From assembly GCA_051819665.1 (NCBI GenBank), contig JBNJDG010000001.1, positions 4,369 through 68,368 of the forward strand: DNA of 64,000 nt, written 5' to 3'. Below the pieces are notes generated by a model. It did not search any database and had not been told where the DNA came from. It saw nothing but the letters and a program-made list of their open reading frames with translations. Shown here one piece after another: positions 6,331 through 38,434 of this stretch. The stretch is from Nanobdellota archaeon (GTDB lineage Archaea > Nanobdellota > Nanobdellia > Woesearchaeales > CAZZGN01). Position numbers and translations under genes: made by a program. How positions within the stretch are numbered: the stretch's first letter is position 1; the number at the start of each line of letters is the position of its first letter.

Positions 6331-6642
6331 ATGCAGAAAGCAAGAATAAAACTAGCAAGCACGGATATTGGTAAAGTAAACAAGGTCACTCAGGAGATTA
6401 GAGATATAGCTGATAAGACAGGAGTGGAGATGAGGGGACCTGTTCCTCTGCCCACAAAGAAGTTAAGGATTACCACAAGGAAATCCCCTGACGGGGAGGG
6501 TAAAGCTTCATGGGAAAGGTACGAGATGAGGGTTCACAAAAGGCTTATCGACCTGGGTGTTGATGAGAGGGCCCTTAGGCTGGTAATGAGAGTACCTATA
6601 CCTGAAGGCCTTAACATCGAGATCGAGATGGTTGAGGCTTAA
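6331..6642 (+). CDS. rps10: 30S ribosomal protein S10
   Basis: 103 aa; [10 protein letters not shown]...[23 protein letters not shown]...RVHKRLIDL is typical S10. It follows aEF2-EF1a as in the archaeal str-like cluster. Confidence 0.9.
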
Positions 6643-7297: not shown

Positions 7298-9871
7298 TCA
7301 GTCTCCGCATCCCTTCACTAATTTTCCGTTCTCGAACTTCACTTTACAGGCGCCTCCTCCGCCGCCTGAATCATCCTTTTCCACTTCCCCTTTATCATCT
7401 CTGGACTCTTCAACATCATAACCTTTTTTCATGGCGTGGAAAGGCGTAGTGAGGGTATTGTCTACCATGAATACATCGTCTCCTTTCATGATCCTCTCTT
7501 CACCACCCTCCTTGACCCTGAATAATTTGTCCTTATTCTCCTGGAACTCTGACATCTCTTTTGCGACGCTCAGGATCGGATACCTGCTGCCGTCCCTGTA
7601 TATGGTGACTCCTTTGAGGCCGTTCTTCCAGGATCTGAGGTATACATCCGATATGGTCTCTGGTTCTATGCTTTCGGGAAGGTTTATGGTGGAGGATATG
7701 CTGTGGTCGATGTAACCCTGGCAGGTCCCCTGCATCCTTACCCTGTTCTCGGGTTTGATGAAATGGGATGTCCTGAAGAAATGTTCGGGAAGCATATCTT
7801 TCAGATCATCGGTGTTCTTGGCATCCTTCGCCTTCTCATTTAGGCCTTTCTCGTCCAGATAAGCCTGGACAGTGGAATGGAATACCTTGAATTTCTTATT
7901 GCCGAAGCTTTCTGATCTTCTCTCGTAGAAAAGGGAGAATATGGGTTCTATTCCTCCAGAGACTCCGATGTAATTCTTTTTCTCTCCCTTATACCCGAGG
8001 ACGATATTGGATATCGAGCCAGTCGGTGCGATGGATGTAAGAGCTACATTCCTCAGCCCGTTCTCCTTTATCTTCTCCTTTACTTCTTCAGATAGCACTT
8101 CTTTGAAGAACTTTCCTCTGCTGTATTTATCGAAATCCCAGATGGGGACGGGACCCTTTTCACCTGCAAGCTCTGCGGAAGCTTCATAACAGGTGTTCGT
8201 GATGGTGTTCGTCACCTTCTCTACCATCTTCAGGCCTTCTTCTTCATCATAACCAATGCCCATCTGATTGAGCATATCTGCTATGCCCATAACACCTATT
8301 CCCAGCCTCCTTGTTTCTTTCGCAGCCTTCCTCTGTTTCTCGAGTGGATTCAGTGCAACGTTCCATGTTATGACATTATCGAGCATCCTTACGACATTCT
8401 TCGTAGTGTCTTTCAGGCTTTCCCAGTCGATCTCTGCTTCATCACTATAGCCTTTCTTCACAAACCTCGAGAGGTTCAAAGAGCCGAGGTTGCATGCGCC
8501 TCCGTCTTCAAGCGGCACTTCTCCGCATGGATTTGTGGAAGAGATCCTTTTCCCTATATAGTTTGAAGGCGAATACTTGCTCATCGTGTCCCAGAATATA
8601 AGACCTGGTTCTGCAGTAGAGTAATTCCCTGAGACAAAAGCTTCCCATATATCTTTCGCGTTGATTATCTTCCTTACATCATGAGTGTTCTTTGATCCAT
8701 AATAGGTCATGAACTCTCCTGTGTAGTGGATCGCATAATCGTATTCTCCTCCTTCTACAAGATAATCTCCGTAGATGTCCCTCTTCTCTGTATCCTTGAG
8801 GTCCTCTTCACTTATGTTCTTGCCCAGATATTCGTTGAGTTCATCGATATTCCTGAACTCTTTTACTATCTCATAATTCTCTACATCCTTCGAGGGGAGC
8901 TTGTATGAATAATCAGTATCCTTGTCCTGGGGTTTGTTGTATATCCTTTCCTTGTCATGTTTCTTATAGAGGAGGATCGAGCCTTCTTCGTGCTCTTTGG
9001 TCTCTTCAACGGCCTTCATGAACTCATCGCTGACTTTCAGGCTGATGTTGGCGAACCTGACCTGTGTGTTCTCCCTGACCTGTTTTTCTATCTCCTGAAG
9101 GCTTTCCTTATCGAACTTTCCTGACCATTCGCATTGCTGGACTACCTGCTTGGTCGCCCAGTTGGAATTCTGTTTCACTTTGATGAATTCCATCACATCA
9201 GGATGTTTAACATCAATGGTGATCATGAGGGCTCCTCTTCTGCCTGATTGGCCAATAAGGCCCGTAGTCAGGGAATAGAGTTCCATGAAAGAGACAGCGC
9301 CTGTTGATTTATCTGCAGCATTGTGGACGACCGAATCTTTCGGCCTTAATTTTGATATATCGAGGCCTATGCCTCCACCGTATGAATATGTCCTTGCACA
9401 GTCATAGGCGGCATTGTATATGGATTCTATGTTATCATCACCGATCACAGTGACGAAACAGTTTGCCAGGGTCTTCAATCTGAATAGATCGCCGGCTCCT
9501 GCGATGACCCTGCCGCCTGGCATGAAATAGCCTTGATAAAGCATATTATAGAAATTCTCTGCGTTCTCTCTCTGTTTGTTCTTCTCCTCTACCGATGCGA
9601 GAGAGGCTGCAATCCTCGTGAACACATCCTCCGGCCTGTCTTCGATGACTTCTCCGTTGAGATCCTTGAGGTAGTATTTCTGTTGGTAGATGTTCTGGGC
9701 AAGCTCATTACCGTTGAGATAATCCTCATGAAGGGACAAACTTCCTTTCTCCTGTTTTTCCTTAAGCTTATAGAACAATTCCTTATATGAGGTCAGGAAT
9801 TCCTGATTTACTTTGTTGTGGTGTTTTGTCTTAAATTCAAACATTTCTTTAAGTTTATTCTCCTTGTCCAT
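7298..9871 (-). CDS. nrdJ: adenosylcobalamin-dependent (class II) ribonucleoside-diphosphate/triphosphate reductase
   Basis: About 857 aa. The active-site region STNPCGEVPLEDGGACNLGSLNLSRFV is conserved. The tail ends in a C-terminal Cys pair (GGGGACKVKFENGKLVKGCGD). The ATG at 9871 (MDKENKLKE) is preferred because the ORF-track extension to 9925 would run into the palindromic operator-like sites. Confidence 0.85.
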   Translation of the reverse strand: MDKENKLKEMFEFKTKHHNKVNQEFLTSYKELFYKLKEKQEKGSLSLHEDYLNGNELAQNIYQQKYYLKDLNGEVIEDRPEDVFTRIAASLASVEEKNKQRENAENFYNMLYQGYFMPGGRVIAGAGDLFRLKTLANCFVTVIGDDNIESIYNAAYDCARTYSYGGGIGLDISKLRPKDSVVHNAADKSTGAVSFMELYSLTTGLIGQSGRRGALMITIDVKHPDVMEFIKVKQNSNWATKQVVQQCEWSGKFDKESLQEIEKQVRENTQVRFANISLKVSDEFMKAVEETKEHEEGSILLYKKHDKERIYNKPQDKDTDYSYKLPSKDVENYEIVKEFRNIDELNEYLGKNISEEDLKDTEKRDIYGDYLVEGGEYDYAIHYTGEFMTYYGSKNTHDVRKIINAKDIWEAFVSGNYSTAEPGLIFWDTMSKYSPSNYIGKRISSTNPCGEVPLEDGGACNLGSLNLSRFVKKGYSDEAEIDWESLKDTTKNVVRMLDNVITWNVALNPLEKQRKAAKETRRLGIGVMGIADMLNQMGIGYDEEEGLKMVEKVTNTITNTCYEASAELAGEKGPVPIWDFDKYSRGKFFKEVLSEEVKEKIKENGLRNVALTSIAPTGSISNIVLGYKGEKKNYIGVSGGIEPIFSLFYERRSESFGNKKFKVFHSTVQAYLDEKGLNEKAKDAKNTDDLKDMLPEHFFRTSHFIKPENRVRMQGTCQGYIDHSISSTINLPESIEPETISDVYLRSWKNGLKGVTIYRDGSRYPILSVAKEMSEFQENKDKLFRVKEGGEERIMKGDDVFMVDNTLTTPFHAMKKGYDVEESRDDKGEVEKDDSGGGGGACKVKFENGKLVKGCGD

Positions 9872-9921
9872 AGCTACACCCACCTTATTGTCATCATTTC
9901 GAGACGAAAAAAACCATAAGA

Positions 9922-9969
9922 ACACAATATGTTGTGTTTATAGTCATGTAACAATACAATATGTTGTAT
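9922..9969 (-). promoter_or_regulatory. two NrdR-box-like 16-bp palindromes (ACACAATATGTTGTGT at 9922-9937; ATACAATATGTTGTAT at 9954-9969) flanking a TATA-like element in the nrdJ promoter
   Basis: Both sites share the identical 12-mer ACAATATGTTGT. They match the bacterial NrdR-box consensus I remember (acaCwAtATaTwGtgt). Their centres are exactly 32 bp apart, and they sit 51-98 bp upstream of the nrdJ ATG. Confidence 0.45.
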
Positions 9970-10102
9970 AGGTTATTGTCTTAATCATCCATTTATTTAA
10001 GTCTTTTTATCCTGAATCCTATATGTTATTTTCTGGCGGTCATCGAGGAAAAAACTTTATAAAGGATTCCTATAGCCCAGACCAGGTAATACATACATTC
10101 AT

Positions 10103-10186
10103 GCCGTGGTCGCATAATCTGGTATTGCGCGAGACTGGAAATCTCGTTTCCTTCGGGATGTCCCGGTTCAAATCCGGGCCACGGCG
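10103..10186 (+). tRNA. tRNA-Ser (anticodon GGA), 84 nt, long variable arm, CCA not encoded
   Basis: The acceptor stem GCCGTGG/CCACGGC pairs 7/7. The anticodon stem CGAGA/TCTCG carries the loop CTGGAAA. The T-arm is CCCGG-TTCAAAT-CCGGG, with a 14-nt variable arm and a G discriminator. A TATA-like CTTTATAAAGG lies about 45 nt upstream. Confidence 0.85.
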
Positions 10187-10392
10187 TCTGTCCCATTATG
10201 CTACCTTGTGTAGCATTATCGTACCTGGGTTGATATAGGGCAAGGCCCTTATGTGGGAATCCGGGCCACGGCGTCTTAAATTTCTTAAAAAGGAGTGGGC
10301 TTGACTGAACGAAGTGAAGGAAACCCACCTTGCATTCCAAATTTGGGAAATAATTTGCGGGCCACGGCGTCTTAAATTTCTTAAAAAGAGAA
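10172..10392 (+). repeat. three direct copies of the tRNA-Ser 3' end (att-site-like scars)
   Basis: The native 3' end AATCCGGGCCACGGCGTCT lies at 10172-10190. The same 19-mer recurs at about 10259-10277, and GGGCCACGGCGTCT recurs again at about 10361-10374. The two displaced copies share an identical 30-mer GGGCCACGGCGTCTTAAATTTCTTAAAAAG. Confidence 0.5.
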
Positions 10393-10411
10393 TTTGTTCA
10401 TTCCTGTGTCT

Positions 10412-10966
10412 TCAGATCACAAACTGTATCAAAGCACATATCCCAGCAGTCGCCAGAGTGAAGATTATCATCTTGAGACTGCTCATGAACAGGTTCTCCT
10501 TCGAATGTTTTCCCGTATAAACACCCAGGTATGCTGCCATTATAGTCACAAGAGCAACAGAGCCGTAGATGGCTATGCTGGTATCCATGAAGAAGAAAGG
10601 CAGGATGGGCAGAACTCCGCCGACGAGACTGAAAGCTCCGTCAAGAGCCCCTCCCTTGATTATATCCTTGTTGATCGCTTTTTCTCTCTTTGTCCCTTTC
10701 AGGGATTTGAGCATCTTCTTCTCGATCTTGTCCAGTTTCTGATACTGGCTTGTCTTCTCTGCAGTGAATGCTGCTAATATGTTCGAGAATCCGTTCGCTA
10801 CAGCACCTGAAAAGCCTGCAGAGAGTATTATCTGCAGATTGTTAGAAAGCGAGGCACCTATAACAACTCCTAATGAGGAAAGGGCCCCGTCAACAAGGCC
10901 CCTGATCATAAGTCTTATCATCTTAATCCTGTGGGATCTTTGCTTCTTCCACGAACTCGTCTCCAC
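10412..10966 (-). CDS. VIT1/CCC1-family (COG1814, DUF125-like) membrane protein
   Basis: 184 aa; GLVDGALSSLGVVIG and multiple TM segments as in VIT-family Fe/Mn transporter-like proteins. Confidence 0.45.
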   Translation of the reverse strand: METSSWKKQRSHRIKMIRLMIRGLVDGALSSLGVVIGASLSNNLQIILSAGFSGAVANGFSNILAAFTAEKTSQYQKLDKIEKKMLKSLKGTKREKAINKDIIKGGALDGAFSLVGGVLPILPFFFMDTSIAIYGSVALVTIMAAYLGVYTGKHSKENLFMSSLKMIIFTLATAGICALIQFVI

Positions 10967-24762: not shown

Positions 24763-25776
24763 TTATTTGAAGATTATATTCTTCGTCAGGTCTTTATCGA
24801 GGAACTTTTTACAGACTTCGATGCCTGCCTTCATATGGTCTGTCATCCTTCCTGTCTTAATCTCTCCCCCATAAAGTCCCAGCAGAGGGATCAGATTGTC
24901 AGTAAGGTGCTCATCAGCACAGATTCCGCTGTCTATGCTCTTTAGGAGCTTCCTGGCTGCCTCCTGTCCTGGAGAGTAAGGGTCTTTCTCATAAAGTTCA
25001 TCACCGCCCAGCCTTATCGGCCTTCTTCTTTCGATCTCATCCTCTCTCATGGTCAGGGTTGCCCAGAGCACAATTCCACCACCTGTTGATTCAGATCTGG
25101 AGGTTCTCGTGTCTATCCTGACAGGGCAGTCGTATTTCCTCAACAGACTTTTTGCTGACTGGGCGGACTTCTCATTCACATCGAGATCGGAGGAGGAGTT
25201 GGCTATGCCTTTTATGTGGACGAGTTTTCCCTGGCTTGAGAGCTCTATGCCCTTATCCTCGTCATTCCCTTTTACCTTGATCTCAACTTCCCCTCCTCCT
25301 TTCGGGAAGTAACCCCTTTTCCTGAGCTTCACCTCTATATCAGCATAGATCCTGTAGAAAGGGAGTACGACATTATCAAGATAATCGAAGGGCATGCTCC
25401 ATTTCACATCTGTACCTCCCCTTATACTGAGCCTGACCCTGTCCTTCTCCCTTATGAGCGCAGGGAGGAGTGCCTGGAGAAGAAGAGTCACAGAGCCCGC
25501 TGTGCCTATGTCGATATTGAGGCTCTTTCTTTTCAGTTTTCCCGGGATGAACCTTAGATTCTGTGAACCCAGATGGTCCCCTTCAGTCTTTGCCGAGAAA
25601 AGCTCTTTTGCGGCTTTTATGGCCTTGAGATGCTGTGCTTTCAGTCCGGGCTTAGGCCTTTTGGCCCTTATATTGGTCATATCAAAGGCCTTCCCTGTGC
25701 TCAGTGATAAGGCGATACTCATACGGAGCATCTGTCCTCCACCTTCACTTCCGTCAATCTCAAGGGGCCCTATCAT
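24763..25776 (-). CDS. rtcA: RNA 3'-terminal phosphate cyclase
   Basis: IDGSEGGGQMLRMSIALSLSTGKAFDMTNIRAKRPKPGLKAQH is the RtcA N-terminal signature; 337 aa. Confidence 0.85.
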   Translation of the reverse strand: MIGPLEIDGSEGGGQMLRMSIALSLSTGKAFDMTNIRAKRPKPGLKAQHLKAIKAAKELFSAKTEGDHLGSQNLRFIPGKLKRKSLNIDIGTAGSVTLLLQALLPALIREKDRVRLSIRGGTDVKWSMPFDYLDNVVLPFYRIYADIEVKLRKRGYFPKGGGEVEIKVKGNDEDKGIELSSQGKLVHIKGIANSSSDLDVNEKSAQSAKSLLRKYDCPVRIDTRTSRSESTGGGIVLWATLTMREDEIERRRPIRLGGDELYEKDPYSPGQEAARKLLKSIDSGICADEHLTDNLIPLLGLYGGEIKTGRMTDHMKAGIEVCKKFLDKDLTKNIIFK

Positions 25777-33722: not shown

Positions 33723-34547
33723 TTATATTTTTCGTTGTTGTGATTTTTTCCTCTCATCCGTTATTATATTTCTCGGACAAGCGCTGACACATTTTCCGCA
33801 TTGTATGCATTTATCATAATCTATGACAGCCAGATTCTCCTTCACATGTATGGCATCTGCAGGACATGCCTTCTCACATGCTCTGCATGCTATGCATCCG
33901 ACCCTGCAAGTTTTTGTGACATCTCCTGCCTTATCCTTTGAAGAACATAGTACATGTATCTTCTTATTCCCGGGCACAAGTTCGAATAAACCTTTTGGAC
34001 ATGCTTTGACACATTCACCGCATGCAACGCATTTTTCTTTATCAACAACCGGCAGGCCGTTCTTGTCCAGGCTTAAGGCTCCGAACCTGCAGGCATCCAC
34101 ACAGTCCCCATACCCGAGGCATCCATATGGGCAGGATTTCGGTCCTCCCTGAAGCATTGACGCAGCCTTACAACTCCTGATCCCTTCATATTCAAACCTT
34201 CTGTCCGTCTCTCTGTCTCCTCCTGCACATTTCAATACTGCTACACGATCTTCCTTTTCACTCTTCCCGCCTCCTTTTCCGGTAATCTTTGATATTTTCT
34301 TTTTCACTTCTTCCTGGCCTGGTACACAAAGGTCAGCGGGTACTTTCTCGTTTTTCACCACTGCTTCTGCATATCCTCTGCATCCGCTATACCCGCATGC
34401 CCCGCAGTCAAGATGGGGGAGAATATCCAGGACCTTTTTCACTTCCGGATCCTCCCTTACACTGAACCTCTTAGAGGCGAAAGCCAGGAAGATCCCGAAT
34501 ACAAGTCCGAGTCCGCCGAGGACGATTATCGATTCAAGTATCATCAT
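33723..34547 (-). CDS. rnfB: Rnf complex subunit B (polyferredoxin type)
   Basis: N-terminal TM helix, CGACGYSGCRGYAEA motif, followed by several 4Fe-4S Cys clusters. Confidence 0.85.
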   Translation of the reverse strand: MMILESIIVLGGLGLVFGIFLAFASKRFSVREDPEVKKVLDILPHLDCGACGYSGCRGYAEAVVKNEKVPADLCVPGQEEVKKKISKITGKGGGKSEKEDRVAVLKCAGGDRETDRRFEYEGIRSCKAASMLQGGPKSCPYGCLGYGDCVDACRFGALSLDKNGLPVVDKEKCVACGECVKACPKGLFELVPGNKKIHVLCSSKDKAGDVTKTCRVGCIACRACEKACPADAIHVKENLAVIDYDKCIQCGKCVSACPRNIITDERKKSQQRKI

Positions 34548-35122
34548 ATCATTCCTGAAAAGGCTAAAAATGACAACGACATAAGGGCTGCGACAATGAA
34601 GGAGATAGGCATCCCCTCGAAAGCCTTTGGCACATCATTGAGTTCAAGCCTTTCTCTTATCCCTGACATTAGCATGAGTGCGAGGAGAAATCCTAAGCCT
34701 GCAGAGAACCCATAGACTGAGGTATGGAGGAAAGAATATTCCTTCTGGACATTCAGGAGGGCAACTCCCATCACTGCACAATTGGTGGTTATTAGTGGTA
34801 GGTATATCCCGAGCGTCCTGTAAAGTGCGGGGTTCACTTTCCGCAGGAAGATCTCGACGAATTGCACTAAGCTCGCAATAACTAGTATGAATACGATTAT
34901 CTTCAGGTATTCAAGTCCCAAAGGGAGCAGTACTATATTATACATCACCCAGGTAACTATCGATGCGAGTGTCATCACGAAAATCACTGCAAGACCCATT
35001 CCCAGAGCAGGTTTCGTCTTTTTCGATACGCCGAAGAAAGGGCAAAGCCCTAAAAACTTAGCTAATATGAAATTATTCACAAAGATGGCTCCCAGCATAA
35101 TGGATATGATCTCCTGAGTCAT
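34544..35122 (-). CDS. rnfA: Rnf complex subunit A
   Basis: NNFILAKFLGLCPFFGVS signature; 6-TM; 4-nt overlaps with neighbours. Confidence 0.85.
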   Translation of the reverse strand: MTQEIISIMLGAIFVNNFILAKFLGLCPFFGVSKKTKPALGMGLAVIFVMTLASIVTWVMYNIVLLPLGLEYLKIIVFILVIASLVQFVEIFLRKVNPALYRTLGIYLPLITTNCAVMGVALLNVQKEYSFLHTSVYGFSAGLGFLLALMLMSGIRERLELNDVPKAFEGMPISFIVAALMSLSFLAFSGMI

Positions 35123-35736
35123 TCTGTGGCCTCCTTCTTATTGCTTATATGCTTGAACAACCCCATCAACAGGCCCATGGTAAGAAGAGCTCCCGGAGGG
35201 AGTATGAAGATCATCGCTGGTTCCATGGGTATAGTGAAGAGTGTCATGTTGAATATCTCCAGGCTTCCTGTACCGAGGATCTCTCTGATTCCGCCTATAA
35301 GGAGGAGCGAGAATGTAAAGCCGATACCCATCCCTGCTGCATCAAGTATGGACTTGAAAGGCCTGTTCCTGGAGGCGAAAGCTTCGACCCTCCCCATGAT
35401 TATGCAGTTCGATACGATAAGAGGAACGTATATGCCCAGTGCTTCATTCAGGGAAGGGAAATATGCCTGCATAACAAGACTGACGATTGTTACGAATGAA
35501 GCTATGATCACTATGAAGACGGGGATCCTTACCCTTTTCGGGATAATGTTCCTGATGAATGATATTATTGTGCTCGAAAGGATAAGCACGAATGTTGCTG
35601 CCACGCCCATACCTATCGAATTATTAAGGCTCGTGGACACAGCGAGGAAAGGACATAGTCCCAGAACAAGGCAGAACACGGGATTCTTCCTGAATATCCC
35701 CTTTACAAGTTCCTGGAAATCACTCTTCTGTTCCAT
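35119..35736 (-). CDS. rnfE: Rnf complex subunit E
   Basis: LVLGLCPFLAVSTSLNNSIGMG signature. Confidence 0.85.
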   Translation of the reverse strand: MEQKSDFQELVKGIFRKNPVFCLVLGLCPFLAVSTSLNNSIGMGVAATFVLILSSTIISFIRNIIPKRVRIPVFIVIIASFVTIVSLVMQAYFPSLNEALGIYVPLIVSNCIIMGRVEAFASRNRPFKSILDAAGMGIGFTFSLLLIGGIREILGTGSLEIFNMTLFTIPMEPAMIFILPPGALLTMGLLMGLFKHISNKKEATE

Positions 35737-36223
35737 TCAATGCCTCCCTTACTCCTTCGGTCACTGCGGATGATGAGATTGTGGCTCCTGTGACAGCATC
35801 TATGCTTCCTCCTTCCTCTCTGAGCTTTATGTTTTTTCCCATTTTATTCTCGAATTGTTTAAGGAAGGTCCTGTTCTCTATCTTGGTTCCTAAACCGGGT
35901 GTCTCCTCCTGGTTGAGGACGTCCACTCCTGTCACCTTATTATCTTTGTCTATACCTACAATGAGCTCTATCTCTGATGAATATCCCTGGCTTTTCACCC
36001 TGACCACTTTTCCTATGGGCTCATCATCGAGGTAAGCTTCATAATGATCTCCTTTCTTCTCGAAATCATCTGCGTTCATAACCCTCTCCAGTGATCTGTC
36101 GAGCTTATCCTTCTGCCTCTCTTCAATCTTTTCAGAGGTGATATCTTTTGTGAGGCCGAGGGCACCGGCAGCTATTATGGTGACGATCATGAGTACAAGT
36201 CCTGTCCTTATTACCTCGTTCAT
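35720..36223 (-). CDS. rnfG: Rnf complex subunit G (FMN-binding)
   Basis: N-terminal TM anchor; FMN-attachment motif SIDAVTGATISS. Confidence 0.8.
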   Translation of the reverse strand: MNEVIRTGLVLMIVTIIAAGALGLTKDITSEKIEERQKDKLDRSLERVMNADDFEKKGDHYEAYLDDEPIGKVVRVKSQGYSSEIELIVGIDKDNKVTGVDVLNQEETPGLGTKIENRTFLKQFENKMGKNIKLREEGGSIDAVTGATISSSAVTEGVREALNGTEE

Positions 36224-37146
36224 TGTTTTGCACCGAAGGGTCTTCTTTTGGTGAATCTGTCTATAAGGGGCACTACCATGTTCATGAAGAGAATGGAGAA
36301 CATGACACCTTCAGGATACCCTGAGAATAGTCTCAGTATGATTGTCAGGGAACCGCATCCTGCTCCGAATATGAGCCTTCCTCTGGGAGTTATAGGGCTG
36401 GTGACATAATCAGTCGCCATGAAGAACGCGCCGATGAGAAGTCCTCCTGCAAGGATATGGAAGACAGGGTCCTGTCCCAGTATCAAGGAAAAGACGGCTG
36501 CTGTCCCGATGAAACCGAATGGGATCCGCCAGTCTATTATCCCCTTATAAAGGAGGAATGCACCGCCGATGAGTATTGCTATGGCTGATGTCTCCCCTAT
36601 GCATCCGCCGATATTGCCTATCAGGAGATTTTCGTAAGCTGCTTTTCCCCCTCCCTGTTTCAACATCCCGAGAGGTGTAGCGCCTGTGATGCCGTCAGGT
36701 GATACCCATTCGGTCATAATGCCTGACCAGGAGATCACAAGGAAAGCCCTTCCCACAAGGGCAGGGTTGAATATGTTCTGTCCCAGTCCCCCGAATACAT
36801 GTTTTCCAATGGATATAGAGACAATCGCTCCTATGAAGGGTATCCACCAGGGCACAGTCGGTGACAGTACGAGGGCCAGCAGAAGGCCCGTGAGTACAGC
36901 CGAACCATCTTGGATCGTGACTTTCTTACCTGCTAGTTTCTGTATCGTGAACTCGGTCAGTACAGCAGTCACTATCGAGACCGAGATTATTTTCACTGCG
37001 CTCATCCCGAAGAAGTATACAGATGCGAAAACAACAGGCAGAAGGGCCAGTACGACATACCACATTATGCTCCTTACGTTCTCTTTGCCCTTCATGTGAG
37101 GGTTATCGGAGATTACGGTCTTTCCTTCGTCCTTATTGTTTGTCAT
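36220..37146 (-). CDS. rnfD: Rnf complex subunit D
   Basis: NqrB/RnfD-like polytopic protein; FNPALVGRAF and DGITGATPL (flavinylation Thr) motifs. Confidence 0.85.
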   Translation of the reverse strand: MTNNKDEGKTVISDNPHMKGKENVRSIMWYVVLALLPVVFASVYFFGMSAVKIISVSIVTAVLTEFTIQKLAGKKVTIQDGSAVLTGLLLALVLSPTVPWWIPFIGAIVSISIGKHVFGGLGQNIFNPALVGRAFLVISWSGIMTEWVSPDGITGATPLGMLKQGGGKAAYENLLIGNIGGCIGETSAIAILIGGAFLLYKGIIDWRIPFGFIGTAAVFSLILGQDPVFHILAGGLLIGAFFMATDYVTSPITPRGRLIFGAGCGSLTIILRLFSGYPEGVMFSILFMNMVVPLIDRFTKRRPFGAKQ

Positions 37147-38434
37147 TTTCTGATATCTTCTCTTTAGTGAATCTCATCCATTGAACCAGGGGTATTTTGC
37201 TCGGGCAGACATATGAGCAGACCCCGCAGTTGTTGCAGTCCATCGCATGATAATCTTTCGCTTCCTCATATTTCCCTTTCCTTGCATTATGGATTATTGT
37301 TGTGGGCATGAGCCTCATGGGACAGGCCTCTATGCATCTTCCACATCTTATGCATTTCCTCTCTTCCTCTTGTGGAAGTCCATCCTGCGCCAGCAGACCG
37401 GAAGCACATTTTATTACGGGGAAATCATCGTCGGGCAGGGCATGTCCCATCATGGGTCCTCCGAAGATTATCTTGGCAGGATTGTCTGAATATCCTCCGC
37501 AGTATCTTATCACTTCCTTTGCAGGAGTGCCTATCCTGACCAGGAGATTCTTCGGTTCTTTTACGGCACCTGTTACAGTTACGATCCTCTCAATTAAGGG
37601 CTTGCCTTCATAAACTGCTTCGTATATAGCTTTAACTGTCTGGACATTCTGGACCACGCAACCGACATCGTGCGGCAGGCCTTTCCTGTTGGGTACTTCT
37701 CTTCCCGTAACCGAATATATTATGTTCTTCTCCGAACCTTGCGGATATCTTGTGCTTAAAGGCAGAATCTCTATGTTCTCCTTTCCTGACTTTTCCGTCA
37801 GGTTTGAGATGGCATCCTTCTTATCCTTCTCTATCGCGATGAAACTTCTCTCAGGCTCCAGGATCTTCTGCATGATCCTCAGGCCTTTTATGATCTTCTC
37901 TCCATGTTCAACCATCGTCCTGTGGTCTGAAGTTAGGTAAGGTTCGCATTCGGCACCATTGAGAATTATCGTGTCTATCTTCTTCCCTTCAGGCGGTGAC
38001 ATCTTAACATGAGTGGGGAATGATGCTCCACCCAGGCCGACTATTCCTGCATCCCTTATTATCTGTATTAGCTCTTTCTTCGTCAGCTTCTCCGGATCCT
38101 GCCTTCCGTTTATAGGTTTACCTTTCCTGTCTTTCCCGTCTGACCTTATCACTATGGTTTCTCCCTTGCCCGTAACAGGGTGATGCCTCTCTTCAACAGC
38201 CTCGACAGTTCCGGAGACGGGGGAATGGACAGGCGAGGTGACAGTCTTATCAGAATCAGCGATCTTCTCTCCGAGTTTTACCCTGTCACCTTTTTTTACC
38301 CTAGCTTTGCAGGGACATCCTATATGCTGGTTGAGGGGCAGGCTCACCATCTCAGGAGGGGGCATGACCTCTGTATTTCTATTTTTCGTGAGTTTATTCT
38401 GTTCTACACGGATCCCGCCAAAAAAGGATTTCAT
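37133..38434 (-). CDS. rnfC: Rnf complex subunit C
   Basis: GLGGASFPTHVKM (NADH/FMN-binding) and two 4Fe-4S motifs CIRCGRCIEACP / CNNCGVCSYVCP. Confidence 0.85.
   Translation of the reverse strand: MKSFFGGIRVEQNKLTKNRNTEVMPPPEMVSLPLNQHIGCPCKARVKKGDRVKLGEKIADSDKTVTSPVHSPVSGTVEAVEERHHPVTGKGETIVIRSDGKDRKGKPINGRQDPEKLTKKELIQIIRDAGIVGLGGASFPTHVKMSPPEGKKIDTIILNGAECEPYLTSDHRTMVEHGEKIIKGLRIMQKILEPERSFIAIEKDKKDAISNLTEKSGKENIEILPLSTRYPQGSEKNIIYSVTGREVPNRKGLPHDVGCVVQNVQTVKAIYEAVYEGKPLIERIVTVTGAVKEPKNLLVRIGTPAKEVIRYCGGYSDNPAKIIFGGPMMGHALPDDDFPVIKCASGLLAQDGLPQEEERKCIRCGRCIEACPMRLMPTTIIHNARKGKYEEAKDYHAMDCNNCGVCSYVCPSKIPLVQWMRFTKEKISENDKQ

Follow-up and report, generated by a model that had tools for sequence, protein, structure and literature searches.

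The 64-kb window analysed here (the whole stretch of DNA, 64,000 nt) contains an intact tRNA-Ser(GGA) gene and, downstream of it, two displaced copies of the gene's 3' end, which on balance are probably the products of two past integrase-type insertions in the T-loop region of the gene, with nothing resident now. The inserted DNA presently amounts to 68 and 65 nt and contains no recombinase, and therefore nothing is resident or mobile at the locus today. In related archaea, roughly one tRNA gene in five has a miniature footprint of this kind. The recurring miniature intervals, together with the hairpin modules common to different tRNAs, are a lineage-wide feature that is invisible from the window alone.

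The tRNA-Ser(GGA) gene is the sole tRNA gene within the window. ARAGORN places it at 10102-10188 and Rfam at 10103-10186, while sequence reading sets G1 at 10103 and the discriminator G at 10186; by all three the gene is continuous, its mature sequence lacking an intron. The elements of the locus are as follows.

10103..10186, plus strand: intact tRNA-Ser(GGA) gene (ARAGORN; Rfam RF00005, 55.9 bits; sequence reading)
10171..10189, plus strand: copy 1, the 19-nt block AATCCGGGCCACGGCGTCT, from T-loop A58 to the discriminator plus three trailer bases (TCT) (repeat search)
10190..10257, plus strand: proximal insert I2, 68 nt, non-coding (sequence, fold and family search)
10195-10219: hairpin 1 of I2, ATTATGCTAC-CTTGT-GTAGCATTAT (sequence)
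10224-10231: T-stem-like strand CCTGGGTT of I2, which can pair with AATCCGGG of copy 2 around hairpin 2
10233-10252: hairpin 2 of I2, ATATAGGGC-AAG-GCCCTTAT
10258..10292, plus strand: copy 2, displaced tRNA 3' fragment, attR-like (repeat search)
10293..10357, plus strand: distal insert I1, 65 nt, non-coding (sequence and fold)
Within 10293-10357: hairpin GGAGTGGGC...CCCACC(TT) and palindrome CCAAATTTGG of I1
10358..10388, plus strand: copy 3, the farthest and most degenerate displaced fragment
10412-10966, minus strand: VIT open reading frame, ending at the stop codon at 10412

The 3' part of the tRNA from A58 (10171) constitutes copy 1 of the repeated block and is attL-like in its position as a regenerated target. 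The displaced copies recognised in the first-pass annotation are present, spaced by 87 nt and then 96 nt, with coordinates that required slight correction. Copy 2 reproduces the complete 19-mer at 10258-10276, 87 nt from copy 1 start to start. Copy 3 matches the 19-mer at 16 of 19 positions (10354-10372) and keeps the exact 15-mer CGGGCCACGGCGTCT at 10358-10372, 96 nt beyond copy 2, while its T-stem strand reads TGCGGG in place of TCCGGG. The sequence shared by copies 2 and 3 is perfect, as first described, but is one base longer than the 30-mer then given: the 31-mer CGGGCCACGGCGTCTTAAATTTCTTAAAAAG occupies 10262-10292 and 10358-10388, runs 19 nt into the trailer and takes in the trailer sequence TCTTAAATTTCTTAAAAAG. 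The repeat units measure 87 and 96 nt, and the duplicated blocks 19 and 31 nt. The sequence after copy 3, up to the VIT stop codon at 10412, is probably the native trailer. When up to two mismatches are allowed, the 14-mer core has three sites in the 64 kb against 0.16 expected, a number reached by none of 100 shuffles, and the trailing 20-mer of copies 2 and 3 occurs in the window at these two sites only. No further core copy (up to two mismatches) lies in the 53.8 kb downstream or the 10 kb upstream, which makes it unlikely that the repeats mark the start of a larger island, as had been proposed, and rules such an island out within the window.

The two inserts are unrelated in sequence, and Tandem Repeats Finder detects no tandem array at the locus. 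A search for terminal inverted repeats on the inserts found only CCCA/TGGG (4 nt) at the ends of I2 and none at the ends of I1. The hairpin with the CTTGT loop reported behind the tRNA exists but ends at 10219 rather than 10221. The Rfam 15 covariance models, run over 10050-10450 at E<=10, return the tRNA only, and the spacer units have no match. Both window units fold no better than shuffled sequences (z-scores -0.9 and -1.5). The value of -0.9 is that of the fold that pairs CCTGGGTT with AATCCGGG around hairpin 2.

Upstream of the locus lie genes for a class II ribonucleotide reductase (RNR, minus strand), EF-2, EF-1alpha, S10 and an FMN reductase, and downstream those for VIT, DUF211, Ham1, TFB, MGMT and a methyltransferase; 30 more ORFs across the window either encode housekeeping functions or lack a Pfam match, and none of these 30 is a transposase. 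As previously remarked, no integrase is nearby: none (PF00589) was found among 40 scanned ORFs of the window. The DUF211-VIT pair, once considered the nearest candidate cargo, lies beyond the last copy and amid housekeeping genes (Ham1, TFB, MGMT), and it is ruled out as a bounded cargo by its position outside the repeats. A protein identical to the DUF211 of the window was found only on a 1.3-kb Logan contig that ends 13 nt past copy 3 and is uninformative; an equivalent look-up of the RNR protein found none. The RNR and EF-1alpha proteins match those of a Nanobdellota (DPANN) archaeon MAG, the host, at 100% identity; the nearest RNR from another genome is 67% identical and the nearest EF-1alpha 88%.

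The block extends from the T-loop to beyond the end of the tRNA, in direct orientation and downstream of an intact gene, and therefore carries the signature of a tyrosine integrase according to the principle applied in Islander (PMC4383910). In that collection 1836 of 3919 islands belong to the T-stem-region class and 3760 of 3919 involve 3' fragments (PMC4383910). A tyrosine integrase presumably made the two junctions of the window. Each insertion would have brought its own copy of the tRNA 3' end, regenerating an intact gene (attL-like), and would have pushed the previous 3' end downstream as an attR-like fragment. I2, with its 19-nt identity block, would represent the newest event, beside the tRNA, and I1 the older, distal event, with a 31-nt block whose T-stem strand has decayed. 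The short inserts would then be collapsed or miniature derivatives of larger elements. The earlier proposal of integrase-type insertion is retained on the strength of the block position, the direct orientation and, among relatives, adjacent integrases, serial arrays and the L053/L056 polymorphism described below, but the scar mechanism, the island and the cargo that accompanied it are not. Successive excision scars are the wrong mechanism, because precise integrase excision leaves no scar.

Related archaea display the same architecture. A search with the 19-mer gave no match in viral contigs and 16 single matches in GTDB species representatives, a collection without the source genome; 14 of the 16 are chance matches in bacteria. 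The remaining matches fall in two other DPANN MAGs, in both of which the tRNA-Ser(GGA) gene is interrupted in the T-loop (GGTTCAAA / 47-80 nt / TCCGGG...) and missed by ARAGORN. The T-loop-interrupted gene of L005 is followed by an extra 3'-end copy 55 nt downstream. The 23-mer of the distal block has no match in the JGI metagenomes. Syntenic contigs (EF2-EF1a-S10-RNR-tRNA-Ser) were recovered from four independent assemblies (L018, L019, L020 and L084), in which the tRNA...TCCGGGCGGCAGCG, a 49-nt spacer, a second TCCGGGCGGCAGCG and a T-run are identical across the four sources; L022 has a spacer homologous to this group and a 3'-end copy with two transitions. In the NCBI MAG L020, a run of N at 6467-6567 has the 5' part of tRNA-Ser duplicated on both sides, which is a scaffolding artefact of that assembly and no biological repeat.

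A metagenome scan with the conserved 5' part of tRNA-Ser(GGA) yielded 120 stretches representing 108 distinct regions, about 18 of which contain one to three extra copies of their own 3' end, and ten different acceptor stems are each accompanied by a matching displaced copy. When the 3' 13-mer of each gene was sought within 600 nt downstream with at most one mismatch, 14 of 64 Ser(GGA) genes had such a copy, as did 6 of 37 genes for other tRNAs (Ala, Ile, Gly, Val, Glu and Met), while the 5'-end control gave only two matches, both more than 500 nt upstream and none nearer. In searches spanning whole loci, the 15-mer copies are found 58-198 nt downstream apart from a single one at 1435 nt, and neither upstream nor inverted copies occur (52 tRNAs with more than 2 kb of downstream sequence). 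The intervals between identity blocks measure 32-179 nt in 27 of 29 cases; the two larger ones, 746 nt in L113 and about 1.2 kb in L039, hold one ORF each, without an integrase domain. The left edges of the blocks fall from T-loop position 54 to T-stem position 62, block boundaries in all ranging from 49 to 62, and the duplicated blocks are 13-37 nt long and reach up to 21 nt into the trailer. About 80% of the tRNA genes in the same contigs have no displaced copies.

Several relatives display signs of insertion at the tRNA gene. L039 has four displaced copies in series, the farthest degenerate (TTTGGGTCATGGCG) and one keeping nearly the whole T-arm. L137 and L091 have one insert in common, and L137 bears a further one of 140 nt between it and the tRNA; therefore new material enters beside the functional gene and older copies move outward. 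Copy 3 of the window fits such outward decay with its TGCGGG, a form also found in the distal copy of L091. The comparison of occupied and empty sites that had been suggested produced one pair: L053 and L056, from different metagenomes, differ over about 400 aligned nt by a single 81-nt unit, consisting of a 63-nt insert and an 18-nt tRNA block, and are otherwise identical. These two form a clean occupied/empty pair, in which the 81-nt difference may reflect gain or loss alike.

Integrases were observed directly beside tRNA-Ser genes of relatives. In L098, tRNA-Ser(GGA) is followed after 78 nt by the start of a 400-aa tyrosine recombinase (PF00589, E=1.4e-16, plus a zinc ribbon); the L043 contig ends in sequence matching residues 1-16 of this integrase, and L052 has an integrase fragment after tRNA-Ser(GGA). 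Homologues of the L098 integrase number 1328 matches, mostly in Woesearchaeota and Nanoarchaeota, and no relative was found in viral contigs. In L150 a homologue immediately follows a tRNA-Ser(CGA)-like gene, and in L152 a tRNA-Ser(TGA)-like one; next come genes for NikA-like, TrbL/TrbC/T4SS-pilin, DNA methylase and restriction-modification proteins, and these gene sets look like ICE-like elements. The left-end motif of L150 (GAGCCCTTTTTGGGCTACAAA) has no match in viral contigs. It is also found 3' of the displaced copy in L126, where the integrase is absent, and therefore elements decay in place at such junctions. A search for a complete element with both att ends found no second copy within 10-12 kb in L150, L152, L153, L154 or L098.

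The short intervals can be grouped into families whose members are found in different genomes and beside different tRNAs (Ser, Met, Val, Ile, Glu and Ala); in each family a hairpin directly precedes the displaced copy. Four types were distinguished.

Type 1: ACGGGCCC, a 7-bp hairpin and CGTG; L018, L022 and the three tandem units of L087
Type 2: inverted T-loop, GGATTTGAAC; L034, L039, L063, L074, L137 and L069, at tRNAs Ser, Ala and Ile
Type 3: GATAAGGGC-loop-GCCCTTATG; window 10232-10253 (Ser), L087-Val, L135-Glu and L069-Ile
Type 4: GTGCAGG-hairpin-GTGCAGG, a two-hairpin family; L053-Ser and L143-Met

Hairpin 2 of I2 is the window member of the GATAAGGGC..GCCCTTATG family, whose other members (L087, L135 and L069) also lie directly 5' of displaced tRNA ends. 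In the type-1 hairpin, double substitutions preserve the pairing (GC/CG/UA/AU at one pair, GC/AU at a second). The inserts of L087 and L018 contain an acceptor-like 5' strand, and insert and displaced copy together fold into a minihelix-like structure with z-scores of -4.9 and -2.7. The compensatory changes and the minihelix-like folds suggest that the modules are selected rather than decaying. In L087 (minus strand), tRNA-Ser(GGA) is followed by three tandem 95-nt units, each with a variable segment of about 40 nt and then a nearly identical 55-nt module made up of the acceptor-like strand, the hairpin and the copy of the tRNA 3' end; this array of conserved repeats and variable spacers is identical in L101. 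In viruses, the hairpin pattern ATAAGGGC-N3-5-GCCCTTATG gave 11 matches, all of them terminator-like hairpins with no adjoining tRNA end, and was set aside.

Bulge-helix-bulge introns of 13-80 nt at T-loop position 59/60 interrupt tRNA-Ser(GGA) in L005, L008, L036, L045, L046, L052 and L054, and also in L055, L058, L064, L078, L113 and L145; ARAGORN fails on these genes. The hBHBh' motif is defined by a 4-bp central helix (UUCA/UGAA), two 3-nt bulges and an inner helix. In the introns at 59/60 the outer helix is the T-stem, UGAA is the partner of U54-A57, and AAN and ARU make up the bulges. The copy-2 junction of the window, TGGG-AA/T, has intron-like spacing, and its TGGG could pair with UUCA by means of two G-U pairs; folding predicts neither an inner helix nor a 5' bulge there. 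The idea that T-loop introns start with a decayed copy of the 3' exon is not supported, with 49 matches against 54.7 +/- 4.2 in shuffles. The link between displaced copies and T-loop introns is suggestive only, because the introns hold no trace of the 3' exon and the block edges range from 49 to 62 and extend into the trailer. Some loci combine these features in other ways. At about 9700-10000 in L153, a 404-aa tyrosine integrase directly follows a tRNA with introns in the anticodon loop and in the T-loop (the latter about 115 nt), and L052 joins a T-loop intron to its downstream integrase fragment. In L059 (3279-3530) and L143 (minus strand, about 990-1500 in reverse-complement coordinates), a complete tRNA-Ser(GGA) is nested in another tRNA-Ser(GGA), between the variable arm and the T-arm, and the nested gene of L059 has long inverted repeats on both sides (GTACCAAATTCTGC / GCAGAATTTGGTTGTAC).

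Successive integrations do not accommodate every observation. Random decay of kb-sized islands should give a broader spread than 27 of 29 intervals at 32-179 nt and only two at kb scale, and the presence of the same interval families at different tRNAs also argues against successive integrations, because every target of an integrase element calls for a matching attP copy. The compensatory hairpin changes, the minihelix-like pairing of insert and displaced copy in some units, the 81-bp unit, which is too small for a double-stranded circle, and the failure to recover any element that is complete at both ends and has a matching right-end module point in the same direction. The attP requirement and the circle limit imply that the units are either collapsed ends of related element families or a miniature cassette class, and plain decay of ordinary islands does not explain the lineage-wide miniature pattern well. 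A cassette class would consist of 45-180-nt non-coding hairpin units inserting by themselves or mobilised in trans at many tRNA T-loops; the second tRNA 3' end would arise as a target-site duplication or through an att site folded from a single strand, and the units would not be island remnants. Such an origin is unlikely. It fits the narrow size range, the same families at different tRNAs in different genomes (types 2, 3 and 4), the compensatory changes, the discrete 81-nt polymorphism between the identical flanks of L053 and L056, and the imperfect-palindrome architecture of insert strand, small hairpin and displaced copy. However, terminal inverted repeats are lacking, the block length varies (13-37 nt) where a transposase would leave a fixed stagger, the units have no candidate enzyme linked to them, the family members are diverged (about 65% identity) and not recent copies, L126 holds a real element remnant at the same kind of junction, and the L053/L056 polymorphism could equally be loss through recombination between repeats. 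That DPANN archaea of the Woesearchaeales/Nanobdellota type carry undescribed hairpin cassettes of about 45-180 nt, in arrays after about one fifth of tRNA genes and with the window units as members, is a tentative and rather doubtful proposition, under which the cassettes may insert at the T-loop of many tRNAs, regenerate the gene and displace the old 3' end.

The same compensatory changes, together with the acceptor-like stems and hairpins of the L087 and L018 units (z-scores as above), would also be expected of co-transcribed trailer structures, that is, functional parts of the tRNA transcription unit matched by pairing selection, acting as minihelix-like mimics of the acceptor/T-arm or as processing or termination signals. 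The displaced copy does match the acceptor strand of its own tRNA in ten lineages and T-runs follow many distal copies, but this explanation is distinctly improbable: the structures are absent from about 80% of the tRNA genes in the same contigs and are present or absent between the identical flanks of L053 and L056, distal copies decay (TGCGGG in window copy 3 and L091, TTTGGGTCATGGCG in L039), close relatives with the same acceptor stem have unrelated inserts, and the window units fold like their shuffles and have no Rfam family at E<=10. The copies could alternatively be former 3' exons, left downstream with the old intron when an ancestor with a T-loop (59/60) bulge-helix-bulge intron was healed by a 3'-exon copy placed after the 5' exon; the reverse is also possible, in which case T-loop introns would derive from the arrays. 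Canonical 59/60 introns are present in about 13 related tRNA-Ser(GGA) genes, many displaced blocks start exactly at T60, and the junctions TGGG-AA/TCCGGG of the window and TTTGAATG/TCCGGG of L063 resemble the intron 3' ends TGAA-AR/T. This origin is nevertheless very improbable, as most junctions have no UGAA central-helix strand, the introns show no 3'-exon remnant at their 5' ends, the window fold contains no bulge-helix-bulge, and block edges from 49 to 62, reaching up to 21 nt into the trailer, are no property of an exon. Local replication slippage or a MAG assembly artefact is scarcely credible: the repeats are short and close together and the window comes from a single metagenome assembly, but the repeated part of the 87- and 96-nt units is limited to 19 and 31 nt, the rest being unrelated, and analogous arrays occur in many independent assemblies (JGI, ENA, NCBI and Logan). 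Slippage duplication itself is ruled out by the lack of a Tandem Repeats Finder array and by the unrelated inserts.

Read as two successive integrase-type insertions, the locus shares with tDNA islands, produced by tyrosine integrases and including tandem arrays (Williams 2002 sublocation classes; Islander, PMC4383910), an intact regenerated tRNA with direct displaced 3' fragments, a block start in the T-loop/T-stem (here A58), and serial accumulation with the newest unit next to the gene. Islander defines an island by an integrase between the tRNA gene and the fragment and a length of 2-200 kb, and discards candidates below 2 kb (PMC4383910); such units are therefore invisible to that approach. 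The window agrees with Islander in the regenerated tRNA, the direct 3'-side fragment and the region of the block start, but it has no integrase or cargo and its intervals of 65-68 nt fall outside 2-200 kb; in relatives, moreover, the interval families recur at different tRNAs. A model put forward for the tRNA-Thr gene of Caldiarchaeum subterraneum has the gene disrupted by an integrating element carrying a tRNA fragment (Sugahara et al. 2012, PMC3293823), and proposes a link among integration, tRNA fragments and non-canonical introns. Both cases involve tRNA fragments near a full archaeal gene and genome heterogeneity within one population (PMC3293823), but the Caldiarchaeum case involves a 5' fragment and an element of 1.8 kb that encodes a recombinase, whereas the window has 3' ends, tiny inserts and an undisrupted tRNA. 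Archaeal bulge-helix-bulge T-loop introns resemble the window in gene family, T-loop position and a short hairpin-bearing sequence 5' of TCCGGG..., and differ from it in that the window tRNA is continuous, no bulge-helix-bulge is predicted and the block enters the trailer. Casposons and other transposons of tRNA 3' ends are flanked by a direct duplication of 14-15 bp or more. The insertion at a tRNA 3' end with direct duplication is alike, but the units described here have no terminal inverted repeats, Cas1 or polymerase, their duplications are 13-37 nt and their inserts are below 200 nt. CIMEs, non-autonomous derivatives of integrative elements, are kb-sized, and integron cassettes insert at attI, not at tRNA genes. 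With these and with the folded attC-type recombination sites of integrons the units have in common att-type flanks without a recombinase gene and small imperfect palindromes whose structure is conserved while the sequence varies; they differ in being far below kb size, and nothing of the IntI type was observed.

Directly repeated tRNA 3' ends count as a textbook mark of integration, and the window locus alone is an ordinary empty footprint. What the relatives add is that such footprints are very common in these ultra-small archaea and almost always miniature, and that their hairpin modules recur at different tRNAs. This layer of tRNA-gene dynamics has probably been overlooked, since island-finding pipelines discard intervals below 2 kb. 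If the units are mobile in their own right, they would represent a new kind of tRNA-targeting element, and the origin of non-canonical tRNA introns, fragments and splits in archaea would become directly testable. Should they be cassettes, their arrays could be raw material for T-loop introns and for nested and split tRNA genes. For annotation, many tRNAs with a T-loop intron escape ARAGORN and similar tools in these genomes, and short tRNA-end repeats in them should not be taken for island borders.

Two features of the window lie apart from the tRNA locus. Genes of an Rnf-type complex (RnfC/D/E-like and a Fer4 protein) and RtcA RNA 3'-phosphate cyclase occur at 33723-38434 and 24763-25776, a content that indicates a metabolism richer than usual for a genome labelled Nanobdellota. 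In addition, two 16-bp palindromes, ACACAATATGTTGTGT and ATACAATATGTTGTAT, lie 32 nt apart at 9917-9969, upstream of the RNR gene, and the syntenic L018 has kept both (9622-9670). They look like paired NrdR boxes, and such boxes would be remarkable in an archaeon.
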